31,213 nt of DNA from Psammoneis japonica. Lineage: Eukaryota. The notes under the pieces are model-generated. The model did no database searches. It was not told the DNA's origin and worked only from the letters and a program-made list of their open reading frames with translations. Shown here one piece after another: positions 140 to 29,899 of this stretch (position 1 is its first letter; each line of letters starts with the position of its first letter). The stretch is taken from positions 372,001 to 403,213 of the forward strand of contig QPGO01000057.1 of NCBI GenBank assembly GCA_008632985.1, written 5' to 3'. A program made the translations under genes and the position numbers.

Positions 140-1927
140 TTAACGCACAGTTCCAACTCCTCCTGGGAAGTCTCCCAAAGCCATAATACCCTTAGAAGTC
201 CTACGAGTTGGTGGGGCTCCAAATACATCCCAAAAACGCAATGTTTCATCCGCTGCAGCAGAGACGACACAGCCACCATCAGGGCTTGGCTCTGTGTGTA
301 GTACACGTGATGTATGGCCTTTAAACTCTTGAAGCTTGGTCATCGTTGGGTATTTCCAAAGTATCAGTTGGTTTTCACTGAAACCATGGGACGAGCACAG
401 CTCCTGCTGATGCCTCGACCACAAAAGAGAGCATACCTGAGATCCAGTATCGACCGAGTTCAGCATTGTACCATTGCTCGTGTTCCAGAACTTGATGCTC
501 CGGTCAGCTGTGCCGCCCCCGCTGGCAAGTAACCCGCGACGGAATGGACACCAAGCAAGCGCTTTCACGGCAGCCTTGTGCTGCGTAAGAAGAATCCGAG
601 GCGACACCTCGGAACTAGCAATACTGTGCCGAGCGCGACCTGACAAAGCGTCACGTCGTCCGGATATTACCGCGTCCCAGATACAAAGATAATTTTCGTT
701 GCCACCACTGGCTAGCATCGTCCCTTCATCATTCCACTTCAGGCCGCATACCTCTTGCGTGTGCCCTTGGTATGTAGAAACAGCATGACCGGCGGATCGG
801 ATGTCATGTTGAAGAATCAAAGAGTCTCTGCCTCCTGATGTAAGCCACTGGTTGTTCCACGCCAAACTGCTGACTCTATTGGAATGACCATCCAATGTTC
901 GCACCTCTCGAATGGCTTGAGCGTCCCACAATTGAACAGCACTCGAGTTTGTTCCGACGGCAATGTACTTGGATTGACCATGCATGGTTGCCCATGATAC
1001 ACTTGTGACATAATCATTCGCTCCCCGCAAGGTAACCAAATGTTGAATGTCGCCTGTACCTGCATTCCACAGATAGACGCACTGCCCAAGCGCTACAGCA
1101 AGAATATTGTCTTTACTCCAGCTTAGCAGATTAATGTAGAAATCATCAACCAAATCGGGTGCGTCAAGAATTCTTGTTGGGGCACTTGGAATCTTACGAC
1201 GAGTTTTGTTTGCGGCAGATTCTAATCCACAGTCCAACGGATCTGAGTCACTTGAGAAAGCATTCCCGCCCTTGCATGATTTCGATGCAGATCGCTGCAA
1301 GACTCGTAGCTGATCGTGACAGTACGGATCCGACACAAGAGATGACGAGCTTCCTTCTCCTATTGAAGTGAAAGAGCCACTGTGAGTATTTCTATCCGAA
1401 AACGAAAGCATACGTGTGTCATTCTCTTGGTTGCGTGATATTTCATCGACTGGGATATCGAGTAGCGCCCCTTTCATCCGACGTCGAAACTCAGCTTGGA
1501 GGGCTGTCTCTGGGTCTGTTTGAGTCGGCGAAGATGAATTATTTTCACCCGAAAGTATTGAGTAATTAGGATATCTCTGTCTTTCCAGTGAAGATATGAC
1601 GCTGGTTCGGCAAAGGTCCATGTTCATGAGAGATCTGTTCGGGATGAATCGATCTGCTGAGGATCGAACGGTTGGCGTTGATCGTTTCCGAGGAGTAATG
1701 CTGGTGATGGTAGGTGAATGATATATGTTTGGTGCTTTTCTTCTCTTCCTACAAGAAGGCGTGTGTGGATCCCGTCTCATGAGGTGCTGAGGGCTGCTCC
1801 CTCTGACGGTGCCCGATCGTGGAAGAGACCTCATTAAACATGAACTTTTTCCCTGGTGCGTACTACTCCTTGGAGGTGTTTGAAGAAGAGTCCTCTTCGA
1901 GTGGTTGCGTGTTGGTGTTTTCATCAT
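140..1927 (-). CDS. CDC20: APC/C activator CDC20 (Fizzy family WD40 protein), intronless
   Basis: C-box DRFIPNR, a Mad2-binding-like RMLSF, the hallmark RKIPSAPTRILDAPDLVDDFYINLLSWS, WD40 repeats (GHTQEVCGLKW, HKAAVKALAWCP, LASGGGTADRSIKFWN, GSQVCSLLWS, SAAADETLRFW) and a C-terminal VR (IR-tail variant). First in-frame ATG is at 1927; the ORF track's 1999 start is not an ATG. Confidence 0.95.
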   Translation of the reverse strand: MMKTPTRNHSKRTLLQTPPRSSTHQGKSSCLMRSLPRSGTVRGSSPQHLMRRDPHTPSCRKRRKAPNIYHSPTITSITPRKRSTPTVRSSADRFIPNRSLMNMDLCRTSVISSLERQRYPNYSILSGENNSSSPTQTDPETALQAEFRRRMKGALLDIPVDEISRNQENDTRMLSFSDRNTHSGSFTSIGEGSSSSLVSDPYCHDQLRVLQRSASKSCKGGNAFSSDSDPLDCGLESAANKTRRKIPSAPTRILDAPDLVDDFYINLLSWSKDNILAVALGQCVYLWNAGTGDIQHLVTLRGANDYVTSVSWATMHGQSKYIAVGTNSSAVQLWDAQAIREVRTLDGHSNRVSSLAWNNQWLTSGGRDSLILQHDIRSAGHAVSTYQGHTQEVCGLKWNDEGTMLASGGNENYLCIWDAVISGRRDALSGRARHSIASSEVSPRILLTQHKAAVKALAWCPFRRGLLASGGGTADRSIKFWNTSNGTMLNSVDTGSQVCSLLWSRHQQELCSSHGFSENQLILWKYPTMTKLQEFKGHTSRVLHTEPSPDGGCVVSAAADETLRFWDVFGAPPTRRTSKGIMALGDFPGGVGTVR

Positions 1928-2689
1928 GGCGGATTGATTTGAAAGGTTGATGGGACACCGGTAGGTATGTTGTGAGGGAAAAATGCTGCTCGCTGACAAA
2001 AAATGTGAGCGAGCGCCATAAAAAAAACGGAAAAGAAAACCACAGAATCTTATGTATGCAACTTTTTATACAATAATAATATTTATTAGAAAAAATGTAT
2101 GTGAATATTAAAATTCCTCAACGGACGTCTCTGTCACACGCTCACAAAATGGCGATTTGGAGATTTCACTCACTTCTCGTCGCCATTGTGAAAGTAATCG
2201 CCATCGCCTTCACTCCATTCTATCTGGCATACCATTATCCACACTCACTCCTATACAACATTACATGTGATATGCCCTACTTCAGATAGTATCTTGCAGT
2301 CGGTGTGGTCCTCCCACAGACGGTCCTGTTGTCTCAGTTCCATGCACTTCACTCGTTCTGTCTCTTGGGAGGTAGGGTGGCACAGTGATGCCGTCAGCAT
2401 AAGACTCAAGAATGATTTGCTACGATGTTGAAACTTTGTCAGATGGAGACAAGGTATTGAAGATCACCCGACGGCGACTGACAATCCCAAATTCTCAGAA
2501 AGGTGTCAAAGAATCAGGTGATGTTCTCTCTAGCTAGAGAACGATCTATCGATTTCAATGTATTGCCAGGAAAAACTCCGTTGTTCTCGAATGCTGGGAT
2601 AAAGTGTCACTACAAGTTCAGCTACCGACAGTAGTCTCCCAAGTTTTTATCCAGACGTGCGGCGTAACGAGGAAATGGTGTTGTGGTAT

Positions 2690-3790: not shown

Positions 3791-4122
3791 ATAATGAGCG
3801 ACGAGTTCCGTGGGGGGGGGGGGGGGGGGGCGGAGTCCTCGTTGGGCATGGTGAATGCTGCACCTCTGCTTTGATAGAAACTTCTGTTTCCACTAGTATT
3901 ATCATTCTCGACGCGTTCATCCTCTTCGTTTTGTATTCAGTGACAGCATGGATTCGTGGTACCGTAGTGATCATCATCATCATTATAGAAGACGGCATAG
4001 CCCACAACCAAACCAAGCAGCACGCTCATCAAAACCGCAACGGAGAAGGTCATGGATACCAACAATAAAATGTAACAGAAAAGGCCTGAAGTGTGTGCAA
4101 TAGTGCAAAGAATATTCTTCAT
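3790..4122 (-). pseudogene. Ctr-family copper transporter C-terminal fragment
   Basis: YILLLVSMTFSVAVLMSVLLGLVVGYAVF resembles Ctr TM2/TM3 (MxxxM degenerate to LxxxM; GxxxG intact), followed by TTNPCCH. The TGA at 3937-3939 is in frame with a continuing acidic tail (IQNEEDERVEND...MPNEDSAPPPP). No intact N-terminal half is visible. Confidence 0.55.
3812..3830 (+). repeat. G19 homopolymer
   Basis: Read directly; encodes poly-Pro on the minus strand. Confidence 0.9.
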
Positions 4123-5135: not shown

Positions 5136-5255
5136 TTAAACTGCTGTAGCTAGTACCTGCATCTTGTCACTGTTTAGTCGGCGTGGATTTAGATTCAAGT
5201 TTTGTAATTCAGCATCATTTTCCAACAGACGCATACAGAGATCGTGGAGCCATGG
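5136..5255 (-). pseudogene. RNI-like leucine-rich-repeat N-terminal fragment
   Basis: Hand translation PWLHDLCMRLLENDAELQNLNLNPRRLNSDKMQVLATAV* resembles the L..ND..L..L.L start of RNI-like LRR proteins; short and stop-terminated. Confidence 0.3.
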
Positions 5256-5590
5256 ATGGGTGGAGCGGAATCTAACATGCGCGTTGGTATGAGTCTGTAG
5301 GACCAGAATAACACGCGTTTCCGCCTACAAAACAATCTCAAGTGCTTTCCACAAGCTAGTTTCTTTATTCATACAAAATACAATAGAGCTTGAGTTTAAT
5401 GCCTCTTCTGTTCTTCTCCTTGCCGGTGTTGCGAAAAATTGAAAATGATTAATGATCTTGGGCGTTCGCATGAGGCTCAGAACCTGGTGTTCACCGATGC
5501 TTCGCGCGATATATCACTCCCCATCGTTCGTGAAGCACTTGATACACGTTGGTACGCCTTGGTACGCTTGTCCACGGAACACTAAGTATG

Positions 5591-6558
5591 TATGGAAACC
5601 GTTCAGTCACTGGCCGGCCGACGCGGAATTTGTACGGGAATGACCGAAGCGTCAGCTGAGGTCATCGGAACCGGTCACGAAGCCGGCAGGCTGAGTACCG
5701 GTTCTCCCGTACAAATTCCACGGAGGCCGGAGCGGCCGAACCTGAGGGTGCGCTGAGGCGGAGGTCCCCGACGCCGAAGCGCACCCGAAGGTGAGGACGC
5801 GTCCACGTGACTGACCGGTTTCCATAGGAACCTATCAGTTAGAGGACTGACGCAACACAGAGACCAACAAAATACATTAATATGGATCTCTATTGAGTGA
5901 TCCTGGTGATGTATTTTTGTTGTGGGACCGCTGGAAGACGCCATGGTCGAAGGTGAGGCCTCTCGATCGCGGTGTCGTTTCGTGGGTTTGCTTTTTTATC
6001 TATATTATTAATACATATAGATGTATATTTATTTTAATTAGGCGGTTCCGTTTATATGTTTATTCATTTATATATGCTTTTTCACAGTCAGTATCGGTTT
6101 GTGGCATTCAAACACGATTGAACTCTGCGACGTCACATACCAGAGACCTACACAACATTGTCGTAGCCAGCATGTGCAGGAACCACCGTTGGGTCGAGAG
6201 CACTTTTTGAATTTCAATACCAGACAACATGTAGATTTCTACGAGCCAGAAATGACCCTCCAGTGCCATATCATGTGCATCGCTCACTCCGGGAACGCGA
6301 CGGCCGGTTCCCGGAACGCTGGTATATGCCTACGTGGCTCTACGTCGGGAATCGGCCGAATTTGTCAAAATCGCCTGCGCTGGTTCCGACGGTTGGAATG
6401 AGACAAAATTCAAATATTGGTTCCCAACCGTGTACCAAGTTCCCACGTAGCTTCTACACAACCGCCAAAATAGTCTCGGTCATAATGACTCGAGTTTCCA
6501 TACACAGTCTACACAGCGCTACGAAGAACAATGTCAGTCCGATAACTGATAGGTTCCT
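5591..6558 (+). other. Large branched fold-back element (structured ssDNA or RNA) with tandem G.A mismatches; function unknown
   Basis: Stems: 5591-5610/5807-5826 (19/20 bp), 5614-5639/5705-5730, hairpin ears 5640-5665 and 5668-5704, arm 5732-5800, and long-range stem 5826-5851/6533-6558. Eight internal mismatches are tandem GA/GA. Confidence refers to the pairing, not to a function. Confidence 0.85.
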
Positions 6559-6759
6559 GAAGTACACCCTGTCTACGCAGTGTCCCGTTTGTCCACAGGT
6601 GAAAAAAAAAAGATTCAAAGCAAAACGATGGAGAGTACAGTGTGGCTCGAGGACCGAAACAGACCTCGCCGACAGAGAGCTCACGACTGTTGCTTGCTTG
6701 TTGGCTGGCTGGTGCTGTTTCTGGCTAGAGCTACGGTGCTCTACCCTACAACTGTGAAG

Positions 6760-7500
6760 TGTGAGTTGAAAGGAATGCATTAGACTGGCATTTTGTTGGA
6801 AGCCTCACAATGGATCATTGCTCGATCAAACGGCCAAGGTCAGAGGCGGCCACGACAATGATGAAGTCAAATTGGTTGACAAGCATTTGTGGCAGCAGGA
6901 AATGCAAACAATGACAGGGTCAAACTGGCACTGCTGGACAGAAAAAAAGAGTTCAAGCTCATGACTGTGCTGTTTGTCACAAAGGGCTCGGTTCAATTCG
7001 GAGTTTCTTTTGCAAGGCGAGTCTCTTTTCCTCTTGTGTTGTCACATGTGCAACCAAAAAGGAGGGGTGCACCATTGTCATGCACCAAACAGTGCTTCGG
7101 CAGCTGAGTTGTGCAGTGTCTGGTGCAACAATTTCTTTTAGAAGGAGAGTTTTTCCTTGTTGTCAGATGTGTGTGACAAAAGGAGAGAAGCACCATGATT
7201 GTCATGCAAACAGTGGATCAGCCATCTGAGTTGTGTGGTGTCTGATGCAACAAAAGGCAAAAGAGACAGAAGCAGCCAAAACTCAAAAAAACATGCAGCA
7301 GGCACCTGAGTTAAAGCTCTTCCAAAAACAAGAGGCTGCACCACAAAACAAAACATTGCAAATCTGTGACCATTGGAAAAATTGGCTGCTGTCAAGCTGA
7401 GTGATGACTTTGGCAATGTCAGATTTGTGACCAAAAATGAGTTGGTGGCAAAACACAATTGTTCAGAATTTAAATGGTGGTGACCACATCAGTTGATTTT
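6760..7500. mobile_element. TpA-depleted, partly CpG-depleted degenerate repeat block 1
   Basis: Only a few TpA, in TTAG/TTAA contexts (6780, 7138, 7311, 7471); TG/CA-rich; flanks have normal composition. Confidence 0.6.
6825..7033 (+). mobile_element. Possible CryptonF-type tyrosine recombinase relic
   Basis: Reads DQTAKVRGGHDNDEVKLVDKHLWQQ...RARFNSEFLLQGESLFL. Reverting CAC/CAT to TAC/TAT and CAA to CGA gives GGYDNDEVKLVDKYLW...LRGESLF, resembling the recalled GY...YFW...LRGES catalytic-Arg region of Crypton/Ndc10-like YRs. Short and degenerate. Confidence 0.35.
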
Positions 7501-7592
7501 TGAAAAACCGTCACACCTGTGTGGAGTGTGCATCGCAGGTGTAAAAATTTCATTTCTTGTTCTTGTTGATCTTGGCGGGCGGGCGGGCGGCG

Positions 7593-7918
7593 CGGCACCA
7601 GTGCTCACATCAGGAGCACAGGCGCTTGTACAGCATCGCATTGTGTCAAAACACGGCGCAGCGCGCAGTTGGGCGCAGCACCAGTGCTCACATCAGGAGC
7701 ACAGGCCATCATGCATTCAGATTTATAATGTCCTGAAGATTGCAAAAGACAGTGCCATTACCCAACCTTTTCAGAATTGATTAAAAATATAAAAGCCATC
7801 ATAGATTCAAGAATTATATTTGCTTGTATACGTATTTTGTGTCAAAACAGACACCGCGCAGTTGGGAGCGCAGCACCAGTGCTCACATTAGGAGCACAGG
7901 CGCTTGCACAGCATCGCA
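7593..7918 (+). repeat. Three copies of a ~30-80 bp unit containing a GTGCTC-N7-GAGCAC hairpin
   Basis: GCACCAGTGCTCACAT(C/T)AGGAGCACAGG at ~7595, ~7678 and ~7873; copies also share TTGTGTCAAAACA and GCGCTTG(T/C)ACAGCATCGCA. Confidence 0.85.
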
Positions 7919-7989
7919 GTGAGATCTTTGGCAAACCATACACTGGTTTTAGAGGTAGTTGAGCCTTTGTGTAAACAAGTCTGCCCACT

Positions 7990-18330: not shown

Positions 18331-18932
18331 ATGTCGTCGGGGCAGTCGATGTTGCAATCACGTCGATCTCTCTACGTGGGAGGTCTTGAGGATACCGTCA
18401 CTGTGTCGACACTGCGTGCTGCAATGATTCCGTTTGGTCCTATCAAGTCGATTGAAATCGTACGTACGTGTGAATGAGCATGTTTTGACAGTTTTTGAGA
18501 TACCTCCGCTCAAGTCCTCACATTCGTTTTTCAACTCCTCTTCGTTTAGCCAATGGATTACACAAAAGGAAGTCATAAAGGATTTGGATTCGTTGAGTAT
18601 GAGGAACCAGAGGATGCTTCTGAAGCAATCTTCAATATGGACGGAGCTGAGCTAATGGGCAAAACACTCAGCGTCAGTCTAGCCCAAGCCAACCAAATCA
18701 AGCTGGGCAGCAACAAGGCTGTCTGGAGTACCGACGAATGTAAGTACTAAGAAGGATGCTCATATCTACTGTCGATTTGAGAGTCATTCTCATCATGCGT
18801 GTCGCTATCACTCCATCACATATCGTAGGGTTCCAACAACAAGCTGGTTTGCAAGGCAACGAACAAGAAGCGGCACAAAAAGCCGCAGCAGATGATGCAT
18901 CCGCTCTTCAGAAGGACACTCCTTTGCCGTAA
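18331..18932 (+). CDS. RRM protein similar to the N-terminal RRM of cyclophilin E/Cyp33 (no PPIase domain); exons 18331-18459, 18550-18739, 18829-18932
   Basis: RNP2 LYVGGL, RNP1 KGFGFVEY, AIFNMDGAELMGKTL and KAVWSTDEW. Two GT-AG introns (GTACGT..TAG; GTAAGT..TAG) join the exons in frame. Confidence 0.9.
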
Positions 18933-19498
18933 GTCTCGTACAATTGCACATAGGGGTGTATAAATGAAGAATATCATTAGCACTGATGGAGAGCTGTGAA
19001 ATGGTTCTGCCTAGCAACGCCGCTGGCAGGTTGTTCCAATGCCCATAACCGACCATACGCTACATGCGATAGTGTAGGTAAAGCAATCGACCAAGGCGTC
19101 CCATTCACGGTGGCTTGAGTTATTGCTCTATTGTATCGTAGTAAGCCTTTCTCCGTCTGGCGCGATTCCTTTTCAGACGTTCGTCCCCCCCCCCCCCCTC
19201 CGAGATATATCAAGGCAAAGAAACACGAGCTGGACGCAAAGCTGTTACTTGTATCGAGCCTTGATATCTAATCGTCCTTGTTGCATCCAGGCTCGATGCA
19301 TGTGACAGCTTTACGTGCTGCTCGTGCTTCCTGGCCTTGAGATAGCCGTATAGCATCTTCAACATGAACCAGCTCCATGCAAATGTGCACCTTCCCCTCG
19401 TTGAATTTCTCCCTTCGTCTGTTCAAATAGAAATCAAAATCTGAAAAAGGGTGCGTTGTTGTTATAACTCAGGAAGATGGAATCAAACCGTCAGCTTT

Positions 19499-21160
19499 CT
19501 ATCCTCGCACTTGCACATTAAAATTCGCAGTTTTGTGATCAGCGTGCGCATTTTTCTTCTGCTTCTTGACTATTCTCCATACTACTTGCAAATCATGAGC
19601 TACCTGACTTGCTGAGGGCCTCTCTTTTGGGTCCAACGTGAGACACTTGTGCATCGCGTTCTTCAATGCAACGTGAATAGGGTCGTTGCTAGCTTCCAAC
19701 TCGTTCGACAGCCTTGGTATATCGCCTTTTAATATCAGCGCTTCGGCTTGAGATGTAGTAATATCATTGTACTTTTCCTTGTTCATGAGCAACTTGTAGA
19801 AAATGTTTCCTGATCATAGCAGCAAAAATAAGAATGCAGTTAGCATTGCATTCCAGAATAAGTTGAAACGACAGGCAACAGAGAGCAAAACCAGGGGCGT
19901 ACCCAAGGAATACACGTCTATCTTTTCATTGACGTAATTCGTTTCCGCCATGTGCTCTTCTGGGGATCGGTTCTGCAACTCGACCAAATCAGAAACATAG
20001 AGTTAGAGGAAGTAAGAAGGACATTTGTATATATCGTTGTCAAAGGTGTCAATAACTCGCACGCACCTTGTCGTGAGGATGAAACATGGTCCATGTGCAA
20101 GCGTCTTTGTTTCGTTCATCCAAGTAAAGCAAACCGGCCGTATTGAAGTCATTGAGTAGAAAGTTGCCATTCAAGTAAATGAATTGCCTCGCGTCAATGT
20201 CGGTATGCACGGCCGGCGAGAAGGGTCCCCCACCCAGCGTATGCAAATCCGCCAGACCCTTGGATATAAACGCCGCCGTCCGGAGTCGCTCCATCTGACT
20301 CAAGTTTTTATAATGATCAAGCAACGTTCCGTCGTGTGCAAAATCATACACGGCCGCCATACCGCAATACCCGTAAATGTTTGCTACCGCAGGAGAAAAT
20401 GTCAGTCGTTCTGATAATATCGAATCCGTTTGATGATCTTGAAGAAATCGTTCTGTGTAGTTGAGATTGTATCGCAATGTTTTCAATGCCCAACTTGATG
20501 AAGTAGAAGAGTCGTCATGTTGTTGTTTGTACTCCCACACATCACGGGCGTATCCATGATTGACCATTTGCGCCTCATTCTGCCGGGATTTCGACAACAA
20601 ATCCATTTCGTGAACCATGTTGCACGTCGGAAAGAACGTTTCTTGCCAATCGTACATTGGACGACATGTGTTCAACGACTCGGCAGTGTTGTTGACGAAT
20701 CTCCATGCTGCTGCTGTTGCCCTAATGTCACGTTCTTTGATCCGAAACCAACCGAGATCGATTGGAAGTACCGATCCGTCCTTTGCGTTGAGTTCTAGAG
20801 CGAGAGGTTTCGGATCAAACGCTGCTATGGGTACTTGCTCTTGATTGCTTGAATTCAAGTAACGTTGCGACGATCGTTCAATCTGTACAATGAGGAAAAC
20901 TGTCAGCGGCAGCAGCAGTAGAGAACGAACCAGCCCGTAGACCTATTGCTTCTAATCAAGAAGAACATCGAGCAACGAAAACATGACGTCCGAGCCTTGT
21001 GCTGCTTGTGACATTCAACGTCGAGTGTGTCATCCTCTTCTATCGGCGGTTCAGGATGACGAAGCACGCGAACCCTCCTCAGTCTTGGAGAGGAACTTGC
21101 TGAATGTTGTCGATTGTGTCTCTGGTCTCCAAGTTGGATGAGTCCATCATCAGGAGGCAT
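19499..21160 (-). CDS. PKDCC/VLK-like membrane-anchored protein kinase; exons 21160-20067, 19972-19903, 19809-19499; apparent 1-nt frameshift near 20942
   Basis: GYARDVW, ALKTLR, HTDIDARQF, LNDFN, RSPEE, EKIDVYSLG and CLTLDPKERPSA in order. GT-AG introns restore the frame. A hydrophobic anchor (LVRSLLLLPLTVFLIV) lies upstream in the kinase frame. Confidence 0.85.
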
Positions 21161-23027: not shown

Positions 23028-23923
23028 CAAGTGGTTGTTGCGGCACAAGGTTTGGTGCTTGGCAGACCGCTTAGCGTGAGTGTTGTGTATCACGCACTCT
23101 GAAGAGTATTGAAGCGGGGCCGTTGTGCACTGCAAGGATTACCACACTATAGCTGGAGTTGAATGCCATTACTGGTTGGCTAGAAAAGAATGCGCGGGGC
23201 AAACTAGGCTACTGTGAAAACCAGAGCTGACGTGACTGTCGCATGTGGACGTATCAAAAATCGAACGGAAAGAAATGAGCAGAGCAAACATATGCAACGA
23301 CATCGCAAGCGCTACGACCTCCCTCGTAGCATTGACGTACGTACGGAATGAATAACACACCAATAAAGACTGCTATGCTGTACTTTTAGAGTCTTTCTAA
23401 TCTTTTGGAATAGTTTCAAAGCATTCTTTGAAACACGCCAATATCAAAAGTTGATAGAAATCGGTCGCGTAGGATAGCATTGCCTCAAGAGCGCCATCAG
23501 AAGATGGAGCTCAAGCTTTTTCCTAGTTTCGGAGTGGAAATCCATCCAAAAAAAAAGAAAAAGGGGGGACGTACTACGGAGACGACAAGTAAACTTGCGA
23601 GTCAACCGCGTGCTAAATCAACACTCCCTACGAGTGAAGACTTACCGTACCACGTCACTGGTACGACGGAACCCCAAACCCCGCGTTCCGTCAACGGTAT
23701 GATCTGCTTGGCGAGCTTTTGCTGCCTCGCAGACGAACGCTGCTGTCTGTTTCAACAGCCGTGACCTGACAGGTCAAGCGAACAGGCAACTTCCTACGGT
23801 CAAAGACACAGGAGTAACATGGACTCCAGGCCGGAGACACGCATTCGATTTGCCCCGACCTCCGGACTTAACTGGCAACACCTACGCCGCCGATTGAGAC
23901 AACACGCCATCAAGCAAAATGAT

Positions 23924-24200
23924 TTGCGGAATACCAAACAAGAGCGAGCAATCTATTCCAGAGGAAGGGGGAGCCATCCTCGGCGATCGCGGCATTCGTT
24001 GCTTGGCAAACAACAAACACATCGTGCGAGACGACGAGTTGAAAAAAGAGAGACAACACTTCGTGCAAGCACAATGAGTTGTGGAACACCAAACAAGAGC
24101 TAGCTCTCTATTATCCGCAAGAAGGGCGAGCCATCCTGGGCGATCGCGGCAATCGTTGCTTGGCGAACAACAACACATCGTGCGAGACGACGAGTTGTGA
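23924..24200 (+). repeat. Tandem duplication, period ~155 bp
   Basis: TTGCGGAATACCAAACAAGAGC...GAGCCATCCT.GGCGATCGCGGCA.TCGTTGCTTGGC...CACATCGTGCGAGACGACGAGTTG at 23924 and 24079. Confidence 0.85.
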
Positions 24201-27079: not shown

Positions 27080-28130
27080 GGCCACCCACAAACTTCTCAA
27101 GTTTGTTGGAGCACAGCACAGAAAAGCTGTCAACAAAGACGGCCCTGCAAAGGACAGCCCCAAGGACAAAACAGCAGGCAAAACAGGATCTAACATCACG
27201 GATGGGAAAAGTGACTGAATCAGAAAAAGCTCCAGGAGCTGGGCATGCCAAAGAGTCCTCACAAATGGGCATGTGCTGTCATTGTGGAGATGACCAAACC
27301 TGGCACACAAAACCAGCTCCTGGCTCAAGGCAGGAGGCTGCATTTCAAACAACAAACACATGCTCAGCTTGAACTCTGCTCACATTCTTGCTTCAACTTG
27401 ACAAGAGAAAGGCCCTCAACTCATGCACAGGGCAATGCCTCTGAAAGTTTGCAATGTGGCGGGGATGATCAAGAGCACCAAGAAAGGCAGAGTGTGTGCC
27501 ACAGCACCCTCAGTGCCGTGATGTGCCACATGCACCTGACAGGCAATCAAAATGCAAAATGCACCGCAAAAGTGCTGTTGTGAAAATCATGAGCCACATC
27601 TGGTGGGGCAATGATCTGGGAATGTGTGTGCACACATGCTTGACATTCTTGTCCGTCATGCCAATTTTTTTTGTTTTCATTTTAAAAAATTCTGTCATGC
27701 AGTGTGAGATTTTTTCATGCTTTCCAACAACTTAAGGGCTGGCTGGAGATGATGTAAAGGAAATCAACAAGTGCACACCTCCAGGTCATCATCATCACAA
27801 AGAAAGAAACAACCAACAAAGATGATGAGGAGCCTGGCATCAATGGCTGCCCAGACTTCTCAAGTTTGTTGGAGATCTGCACAGAAGCCACCACCACTGA
27901 TGGCCCTGCAAAGGAGGGCCTCTGCCAGATGAAGTGGTGGGTGAAATGGGGTCTGATGTCAAGGATGGGAAAGTGGCTGAATCAGAAAAAAAAGCTCCAG
28001 CAGCCAGATGCCAAAGAGCCTTTGGAAGGGCATGCTCTGATTGTGGAGCTGGCTGAACCCAGTGCACAACTCAATTCCCAGCTCAACACAGGAGGCTGCA
28101 TTTCAAACAATGAACACTTGCTTGGCTTAA
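27080..28130 (+). repeat. Two diverged ~280-bp copies (~27085-27360 and ~27850-28120)
   Basis: Shared anchors in the same order: ACTTCTCAAGTTTGTTGGAG, GGCCCTGCAAAGGA, GGATGGGAAA, CTGAATCAGAAAAA, ATGCCAAAGAG, ATTGTGGAG and CAGGAGGCTGCATTTCAAACAA. Confidence 0.85.
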
Positions 28131-29899
28131 ATTCTGAGAGAAAGACCTTTGTCTTGTGCATGGCACAACATCTCCAAAAGTCCACCATGGCAGTGATTGA
28201 GGTCGCCAGGAGAAAAGGCAGGGCATGCCGTGACACCCTCAATTTGACCCAGGTCTTTGCACTTTGCACACCTCCTCAAAGTTGGCCTTGAGTGTTCCCA
28301 ACTTTCCAAGAAAGCCCCTTCTGCAAGTGAGCAACTGGGGTTCCATTGGCCCATTGGTGGAGCACCTCAAGCAAATGACGAACATGCAAGGCTCTGTCAT
28401 TGCCCCCAGCAGCTGAGATTGCTTGAGGGTGTTGTCACCTGCAGAGACTGACTGAGTGTCTTGTTGCCATCTGTCTGACCAGCAATGTCACCCAGCTCAA
28501 AAAAGTGTTCCAGCATTGTGGGCAATGATGCATCCCTGATGAAAAGAAGCAACACGACAGCCAAGAAAAATTGTGAGAGCAATGCCGCCGCCAGCATCAT
28601 CAGCCCTTTCTGTGCCAAAGTGTCTTTGAGTGAGGCCTGCTCCAGTGCTCCAGGTGATGTGCACAGGCTTGTTTCCTGCTGCTAGCCCATTTTTGCATTT
28701 GGTGCAACAAACTCCTTCAAAGTTGATTTTTTTCCAAATCGAAGGGTGGGTGTGCACAAAACATTTGTTTTTTGTGTGTTCTCACCTTTCGATCTTTGAA
28801 ATGATCAAATTTGAAGAAGTTCAATGTGCTGGGCTGCACAGAGAATTGAGCTCTTGCATGATGGATTGCCAATCACCTGGGGCCAGAACATGCTGTGTGC
28901 AAGGACAGAGGCTGGGCATTCTTTGTTCTCTTGTGTGTTGCGCAAATGAAGATTGTGTGCGCGGGGCTGAGGGATTTCAGCGCTTGTTGGTGATCTTGTT
29001 TGGAGCAGGGAAGCTGCAGTGTGAGCATTGCCCCCGCCTCTCTTGAAAGGGTTCCTCCACACCATCATCGATGTGCTTCCAAGCTCTCAATTCAAAGTGG
29101 TCAACGGATGTGGCATGGCCGCACCAGCTCATCATTGTGCCAGCCATTTGTGTGGTGCTCAACGTTTCCCCCTCCTCCTCGCTTTTGCATCGAGAGAACA
29201 TTTTTCGAGTGCACCAACACTCCCTGCCCAATCGACTGGATTGACAGATTGGCGATTGCGTGGGGGCGCATGCAGTCACCGCTTCCCCCGTCCTCGCTTT
29301 CGCATCGACAACAACAGTCGTCGAGCGCACCAACACACCCCGCCCAATGCAATTTCATTCAGCACATTCAACATGCGCAGCAGATGTTGATTGACCAGCG
29401 ATTGCGTGCGGGCGCATGACACACACGTCACACTGTGGAGGTAGACGGAAAGAACACAACCCTGGGGTGCAACTGCGTAGGGTCTAGCACTTCTTCTACA
29501 GGGTCACCAGGAAAGCACAGACACCGACTTCCGCTACATCAACCTGCAGCACCCTCCAAGATGCGCAGCTGCGAAGACAACCAAAAAAGAAAACGATCGC
29601 GACAATGGCCTCCCTTGCGTCGCTGACATCTGTGTCTATTTTTTGCCGCATTTTCCCGTTTCTTTTCGCAGCATTCGGAGCTTTTATGCAAGTGATGTGA
29701 TGGGCCAGTGGTGCTGGCGTTGAGTTCAATCCGTCGAGGCGGATTTGTCGCTGAAGGTGCAGTGCAGAAATTGTGAGAATGCAGCATCAACATGACGGAT
29801 TTTTGTGATGTGCTGTTGCATCTTTGGTGTTGTTTCTCACTTCTTGTCATTGTTTTGATGCATGTGCCACAAGGTGTCCACAGGGCTTGGGTTTTCATG

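Follow-up and report, generated by a model that had tools for sequence, protein, structure and literature searches.

The segment at 5826–6558 (domain B) is probably the larger half of a gene-less, multi-copy transposable element of 971 bp in a diatom-like nuclear genome, and the long-range stem that closes this segment would be a terminal inverted repeat (TIR) in double-stranded DNA. The whole unit (5589–6559) joins domain B to domain A, a branched hairpin at 5591–5826; its left edge is given by empty sites and its right edge by the family consensus. It shows the features of a non-autonomous, MITE-like TIR transposon, namely inverted repeats, many copies together with empty sites, and non-coding sequence.

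The window, by which we mean the whole 31,213-nt stretch of DNA that was analysed, is eukaryotic and diatom-like. Its single long reading frame (140–1999, reverse strand) encodes a CDC20/Fizzy WD40 protein (PF24807, E = 2e-121) of 619 amino acids in an intronless gene. The best named relatives of this protein are from diatoms and share only 50–69 per cent identity with it, which puts the organism at some distance from these sequenced diatoms. There are 174 stop-to-stop frames of at least 75 amino acids in the window, and comparison of the 173 besides the CDC20 frame with Pfam returned weak fragments only: an RRM, a kinase, and one sub-threshold match. The first is the start of an RRM_1 domain (18370–18474, forward strand; E = 2e-4) and the second is the C-terminal part of a protein kinase (19502–19813, reverse strand; E = 5e-4), and their sequences suggest that they may be exon pieces of intron-containing genes. 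Pfam detected no transposase domain among the window frames of at least 75 amino acids. The 971-bp unit itself has no coding capacity; no frame of at least 75 amino acids over 5589–6559 has a Pfam match, and the longest frame over domain B (6167–6754) has no protein relatives at near or shorter lengths.

Several other repeats were recorded in the window. A run of 18 G (3813–3832) and a run of about 14 C some 15 kb away (19182–19201) were reported by the repeat finder as an inverted-repeat pair. Local direct repeats lie at 7004–7253, 7589–7921, 23911–24197, and 27089–28136, and the types among them are a tandem of approximately 128 nt (74 per cent identity), a 54–68-nt unit present three times (87–97 per cent identity), a tandem pair of approximately 156 nt, and a spaced duplication of approximately 760 nt.

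Closing stem and fold of domain B

The initial annotation had described domain B as closed by a long-range stem, and this stem is real: its arms (5826–5851 and 6533–6558) are complementary at 24 of 26 positions, no 26-nt inverted repeat with at most two mismatches arose in 200 dinucleotide shuffles of 5300–6800, and in a partition-function fold of 5500–6620 the stem has a mean pairing probability of 0.98 with RNA and DNA parameters alike. The two mismatches in the stem are a GA at 5842–5843 (forward strand) opposite its partner GA at 6541–6542.

The two strands of 5826–6558 fold alike (−239.5 versus −244.5 kcal/mol, z of −6.9 versus −5.3), which points to inverted repeats in DNA rather than to a strand-specific RNA. 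This bears on a reading of the region as a two-domain structured non-coding RNA gene with a conformational switch, which we consider very improbable. The fold is strong for both domains (z of −6.9 for domain B and of −12.45 for the 236-nt domain A folded with DNA parameters), and tandem GA loops, of which the region holds several, are common in functional RNAs; both observations would suit an RNA gene. However, besides the near equality of the strands, Rfam matches nothing in the window at gathering scores and nothing in 5300–6800 at E values up to 10, on either strand; domain A lacks the G-U pairs of an RNA helix; and the region exists in tens of diverged, internally deleted copies.

The proposed switch itself finds no place in the computed ensemble. 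It was to consist of a pairing between GTTTCCATACA at 6494–6504 and 5589–5599, in competition with the closing stem of the first domain. The complementarity is perfect (11 of 11 positions), but the pairing has a probability of 0.000, and enforcing it costs +16.8 kcal/mol with RNA parameters or +19.6 kcal/mol with DNA parameters. Switchable RNA conformations are thus contradicted by the likeness of the strands, the empty Rfam search, and a competing pairing of probability near zero. The complementary word is a third copy of the terminal motif of the element, as described below.

Inside the closing stem, structure is present but modest. The interior (5852–6532) has seven perfect inverted repeats of at least 8 nt, compared with 2.86 ± 1.69 in shuffled sequences (seven were reached by 8 of 300 shuffles), and the excess is owed mostly to local hairpins at 5865–5922, 5998–6022, and 6288–6315. 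The interior alone, with the closing stem removed, remains moderately more stable than its shuffles (z = −4.6). The nested helices listed in the initial annotation divide into two groups: the local hairpins hold, and the long-range 8-mers are weak and near chance. Among the latter, the helix 6330/6450 has a probability of 0.001 with RNA parameters and 0.008 with DNA parameters, the helix 6389/6431 of 0.08 and 0.82, and the helix 6041/6466 of 0.24 and 0.91, respectively. The hairpin at 5865–5922 was recovered by both the fold and the inverted-repeat search; two of the family variants, 5916 T>C and 5920 T>G, would disrupt its pairing, and no compensating change occurs among the 40 of 222 family variants listed. 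A local 8-bp hairpin at 6289–6314, CCGGGAAC/GTTCCCGG, carries a GGAACC-type motif and has a probability of 0.95 (RNA parameters) or 0.70 (DNA parameters). The AT-rich tract noted at 5990–6080 is likewise genuine, with a GC content of 0.198 against 0.477 for the window.

Copies, edges, and terminal motifs of the unit

Evidence on other copies comes from three runs (X1, X2, and X3) of one sample, the only one in which the stretch was found, with none of the runs recorded as RNA; their short contigs were aligned to 5200–6900 at a minimum identity of 80 per cent. Matching contigs numbered 258 of 657,387 in X1 and 16 of 63,789 in X2, and there were none in X3; those from X1 comprise 64 at 99 per cent identity or above, 67 at 95–99 per cent, 73 at 90–95 per cent, and 54 below 90 per cent. 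The details given here refer to the 40 of 222 variants, 12 of 73 loose ends, 16 of 296 pieces, and 15 of 19 joints that were listed.

At approximately 5485 the summed depth of the contigs climbs from 54 to 827, and it stays high through 6900, so the element and the sequence on either side of it are repeated. The flanks, 5485–5588 on the left (marked by the rise in depth) and 6560–6900 on the right, belong to a different repeat of high copy number, the host repeat, which carries the unit as an insertion and extends beyond 6900. Its depth is 227–1642, compared with approximately 50 just upstream, and on both sides of the insertion point it is a loose tandem of a unit of approximately 45 nt (TACAC..TACGC..TTGTCCAC). 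The similar words that had been noticed at approximately 5526–5575 and 6553–6596 do resemble each other, but they are neither element ends nor target duplications: they are kept in copies that lack the element, and so form a tandem feature that belongs to the host repeat and lies outside the element.

Six of the 15 joints listed skip 968–1026 bases, passing from 5546–5588 directly to 6557–6574, and the six bridging contigs are evidently paralogous flank copies without the block of approximately 970 bp. Contigs that join 5586/5588 to 6557–6574 set the left edge between 5588 and 5589. The right edge lies between 6559 and 6560, because the consensus C at 5825 pairs with the G at 6559; the family inverted repeat CAGGAACC...GGTTCCTG, with ends CAGG...CCTG, is thereby extended to 5825/6559.

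This C replaces the T of the window at 5825 in seven contigs (depth 577.4 of 898.5), in each of which at least 40 letters lie between this position and the nearer contig end, so at least seven diverged copies contain the junction of domains A and B. A 415-nt contig of approximately 91 per cent identity also spans 5614–5864. Because at least seven diverged contigs cross 5825, the two domains form one family unit and travel together in those copies. The earlier proposal that the region is a single unit, about 1 kb long and with defined ends, is borne out by these contigs and by the six that join the flanks. Other copies carry internal deletions, both in domain B (5857>5977, 5871>6094, and 5997>6511) and in or reaching into domain A (5634>5736 and 5727>5835), and some copy leaves out 9 nt at 5764, inside domain A.

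The edges were derived independently of each other, and the 5-mers next to them are AAGTA on both the left (5584–5588) and the right (6560–6564). This candidate 5-bp target-site duplication, seen at one copy of the unit only, has a chance probability of approximately 0.001 at the register fixed by the edges. The empty sites read AAGCA-CTG-AAGTA, AAGTA-CTC-AATTA, and AAGTA-CTA-AAA..; they keep both 5-mers with CTN between them, and the three letters are the last three of the element. To us, the arrangement AAGTA-CTN-AAGTA resembles the footprint that cut-and-paste excision may leave. A reading without duplication, in which the host natively carries AAGTACTGAAGTA and the block would have entered between A and C, fits equally well and accounts for the contigs without any mismatch.

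It is quite unlikely that the block is immobile, that is, a palindrome-rich internal segment of a larger repeat (from approximately 5485 to beyond 6900) that was lost once in one subfamily, leaving the inverted repeats as structural leftovers. In favour of this explanation, the flanks are as repeated as the block; all six bridging contigs break at nearly one place, for which one event could suffice; and among the contigs listed, no copy has clearly unrelated flanks at both ends. Yet the break points lie 0–3 nt from the outermost bases of two pairs of inverted repeats, with AAGTA on both sides, unlike those of a random deletion, and recombination between the AAGTA copies would leave one of them, not two with CTN between. 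Moreover, the match of one 586-nt contig is limited to 5593–5758 and gives way beyond 5593 to 323 unlike letters, which suggests a copy in a different flank.

Five related termini of two types can be recognised. Those of the A type are the left end of the unit (5589–5616, forward strand; TGTATGGAAACC...), whose first base is the first inserted base according to the bridging contigs; A-R1 (5801–5828, reverse strand), which abuts the left B repeat and forms a 19/20 inverted repeat; and A-R2 (6477–6504, reverse strand), an 11/11 inverted repeat identical with the supposed alternative pairing. Those of the B type are the left TIR of domain B (5825–5851, forward strand), with the consensus CAGGAACC... 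and a CAGT-N6-ACTG mini-palindrome that has GA at its centre, and the right TIR (6533–6559, reverse strand), recognised by complementarity and the shuffles, which is also the right end of the whole unit. The left end matches A-R1 in 23 of 29 aligned columns, A-R2 in 23 of 31, and the B termini in 17–20 of 33–35. Both types share a layout of a GGAA(A)CC box, 3 nt, and CAGT..ACTG; the A-type mini-palindrome has a spacer of 1 nt, the B-type one a spacer of 6 nt with the GA/GA of the closing stem at its centre. A point against the interpretation as a TIR element is that the left and right tips of the unit do not form a clean inverted pair (19 of 33 columns aligned between the two ends, with a 3-nt offset). 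GGAACC/GGTTCC occurs seven times in the unit, compared with 0.31 expected, mostly on the forward strand in the left part and on the reverse strand in the right part. Transposase binding sites typically show such a reiteration of end motifs. No further copy of either terminus is present elsewhere in the window.

These features can be combined into a likely mechanism for a transposable element with TIRs in double-stranded DNA. A transposase encoded elsewhere in the genome would bind the related end motifs, that is, the five termini together with the GGAACC/GGTTCC box repeated inside the element, and would move the unit by cut-and-paste. Its insertion would duplicate 5 bp of the target (AAGTA), and its excision would leave behind both AAGTA copies together with three nucleotides from the end of the element (CTG). 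The transposase, the cut-and-paste chemistry, the reading of the empty sites as footprints, and the superfamily are all what we infer from the arrangement of the sequence.

The GA/GA loops of domain A

Domain A (5591–5826, forward strand) folds into a branched hairpin of 92 Watson–Crick pairs, without any G-T pair and with seven 2 × 2 internal loops of GA opposite GA. The minimum-energy fold of 5589–6558 has exactly eight 2 × 2 loops, the seven of domain A and the one in the B stem, and all eight are GA/GA on the forward strand (and TC/TC on the reverse strand); by comparison, when shuffled segments are folded, 20 of 395 such loops are GA/GA, and elsewhere in the window 5 of 226. The eighth tandem GA that had been claimed for the closing stem is thus exact. 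Its description as the same module as in the first domain is right with respect to the loop itself and fails with respect to the context, which is AGAG/CGAT in the stem, compared with CGAA/TGAG in five of the seven loops of the first domain. In these five of the eight loops overall, GA is therefore flanked by a pyrimidine and a purine on both sides, a context that, according to a study of DNA hairpins, forms stacked sheared G:A pairs (PMC10085684). The CGAG-block hairpins described there are similar to domain A in that Watson–Crick pairs alternate with tandem sheared G:A pairs; they differ in being short promoter or satellite repeats studied as oligonucleotides and, in that study, unconnected with mobile DNA (PMC10085684). 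Our literature search returned no paper linking tandem GA mismatches to transposons.

Two look-alike sub-hairpins of the form C-GA-AGC(C)-GNCA-(G)GCT-GA-G lie in domain A at 5644–5661 and 5677–5696, and the word CGAAGGTGAGG occurs exactly at 5786–5796 and again at 5948–5958, inside domain B. The seven loops of domain A may share ancestry through duplication of a module, in which case they would represent fewer than seven independent events.

A strand-regular GA/GA design, the pyrimidine–purine context of five loops, and the branched hairpin of domain A with its strong fold and its lack of G-T pairs are not predicted by a plain double-strand transposon. There is some chance, if a small one, that the active form of the element is instead its single-stranded forward strand (ssDNA or RNA), whose GA-punctuated hairpins would be recognised by a HUH/Rep-type or other structure-specific enzyme. 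The element would then insert without target duplication and be a eukaryotic counterpart of Helitron-like or of bacterial REP/IS200-type systems, and the B stem would be a true intramolecular helix. The occurrence of GA/GA in every 2 × 2 loop of the forward strand and the sheared-pair context of five of them agree with this explanation, and so does the exclusively Watson–Crick pairing of domain A, which is more readily expected of DNA hairpins than of an old RNA. Folded with RNA parameters, domain A is more stable on the forward than on the reverse strand (−161.1 versus −146.4), and the empty-site contigs fit a duplication-free insertion between A and C.

However, domain B does not share this strand preference: its strands fold alike, it has 20 G-T pairs, and its interior helices are near chance. 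The GA/GA of its stem lies in the AGAG/CGAT context, at the centre of the spacer in the mini-palindrome, a place at which the two arms need not match. Some copies have deletions inside domain A (those at 5634>5736 and 5727>5835 and the 9 nt at 5764), the perfect AAGTA pair argues for insertion at a staggered cut, and the seven loops of domain A may stem from one duplicated module. The ends of the unit also fall outside the definitions of Helitrons and Helentrons in a paper on these elements (PMC4067079). We consider it unlikely that the element moved or was copied via a single-stranded forward strand, as an undescribed diatom counterpart of REP/IS200-type or Helitron-like systems, rather than as a cut-and-paste MITE.

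Comparison with known mobile elements

MITEs and non-autonomous class II (TIR) transposons are reported in diatoms (PMC5859163, PMC7466962). The unit resembles MITEs in its TIRs, its non-coding sequence, its tens of diverged copies and internal-deletion derivatives, the reiteration of the end motif inside the element, the candidate short target duplication, and the putative excision footprint. It differs from them in its length of 971 bp, which is larger than typical, in its five related termini of two types, in its outer tips, which are inverted only loosely, and in the branched hairpin domain with regular GA/GA loops.

Assignment to a particular superfamily was considered by way of target duplications and termini. 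Tc1/mariner elements (Stowaway among MITEs) duplicate TA, and the unit is flanked by AAGTA; domain A taken by itself is bracketed by TA..TA here (5591–5592 and 5825–5826), but most copies have C at 5825. Transib elements duplicate 5 bp and end in CACWATG-type sequences; a direct repeat of that length flanks the unit, but its termini, TGTATGG.. and CAGGAAC.., are of another type. Solo LTRs and integrase-type elements have 5'-TG...CA-3' ends with a duplication of 4–6 bp, and the unit starts with TG but also ends with TG. The duplication typical of hAT elements is 8 bp, and the 8-mers beside the ends of the unit agree at only five of eight positions in any register tried. The Repbase paper mentions hAT families with other duplication lengths. 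Duplications of TA, 2 bp, 3 bp, 7 bp, and 8 bp, as well as a group II intron, were considered and rejected.

Elements that insert without duplication were compared in the same way. As defined in PMC4067079, canonical Helitrons have 5'-TC and 3'-CTRR ends and a palindrome of 16–20 nt approximately 11 bp from the 3' end, and they insert between A and T without duplication; tested in both orientations against this definition, the unit has the ends TG.. and ..CCTG (or ..GTTC), next to the host bases A and C or A. Helentrons and HINEs have, according to the same paper, a TT target, T runs at their edges, subterminal inverted repeats of approximately 13 bp, and a 3' stem-loop (PMC4067079). Of these features, the unit has a small stem-loop and a subterminal repeat, here of 11 nt, whereas a TT target and T runs are absent. 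The unit is similar to these groups, including DINE-1-like elements, as a non-coding derivative whose 5' end is inverted subterminally at the 3' end (5589–5599 and 6494–6504), with a small stem-loop near the 3' end (TCAGT-N6-ACTGA, 6535–6550) and a possible duplication-free insertion; it differs in that its 3' hairpin is only 5 bp and in that a perfect 5-bp direct repeat flanks it. A spliceosomal intron or introner (GTATGT at 5587, CAG at 6596–6598) was also rejected: the only upstream frame ends in TAA at 5584–5586, and no coding context was found.

Bacterial REP/REPIN sequences are hairpin repeats of 20–100 nt that are mobilised by RAYT, a known HUH enzyme. The unit shares with them the character of a dispersed hairpin-forming repeat in whose design G-A mismatches take part and which is read on one strand. 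It differs in its size of approximately 1 kb, in being eukaryotic, and in that no enzyme was found in the window.

The end-repeat pattern of the unit had no match in metagenome contigs and none in viral contigs, and no longer relative came to light. The A-type end pattern matched two metagenome loci, and these matches are due to chance: the loci are identical, bacterial-looking coding DNA and have only a 20-mer in common with the window. This 20-mer lies at 2501–2520 in both loci (L001 and L002), and there is no likeness past its 20 bases. The family is new to the collections searched, and its kind is familiar.

As a transposable element, the unit is one more gene-less transposon family in an under-annotated algal lineage and as such not surprising; the family can serve to mask repeats and to date insertions. 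We know of no structure-reading, single-strand transposition system described in diatoms. If the GA/GA mismatches proved to be conserved on one strand among the copies, they would point to just such a mode of transposition in these algae.
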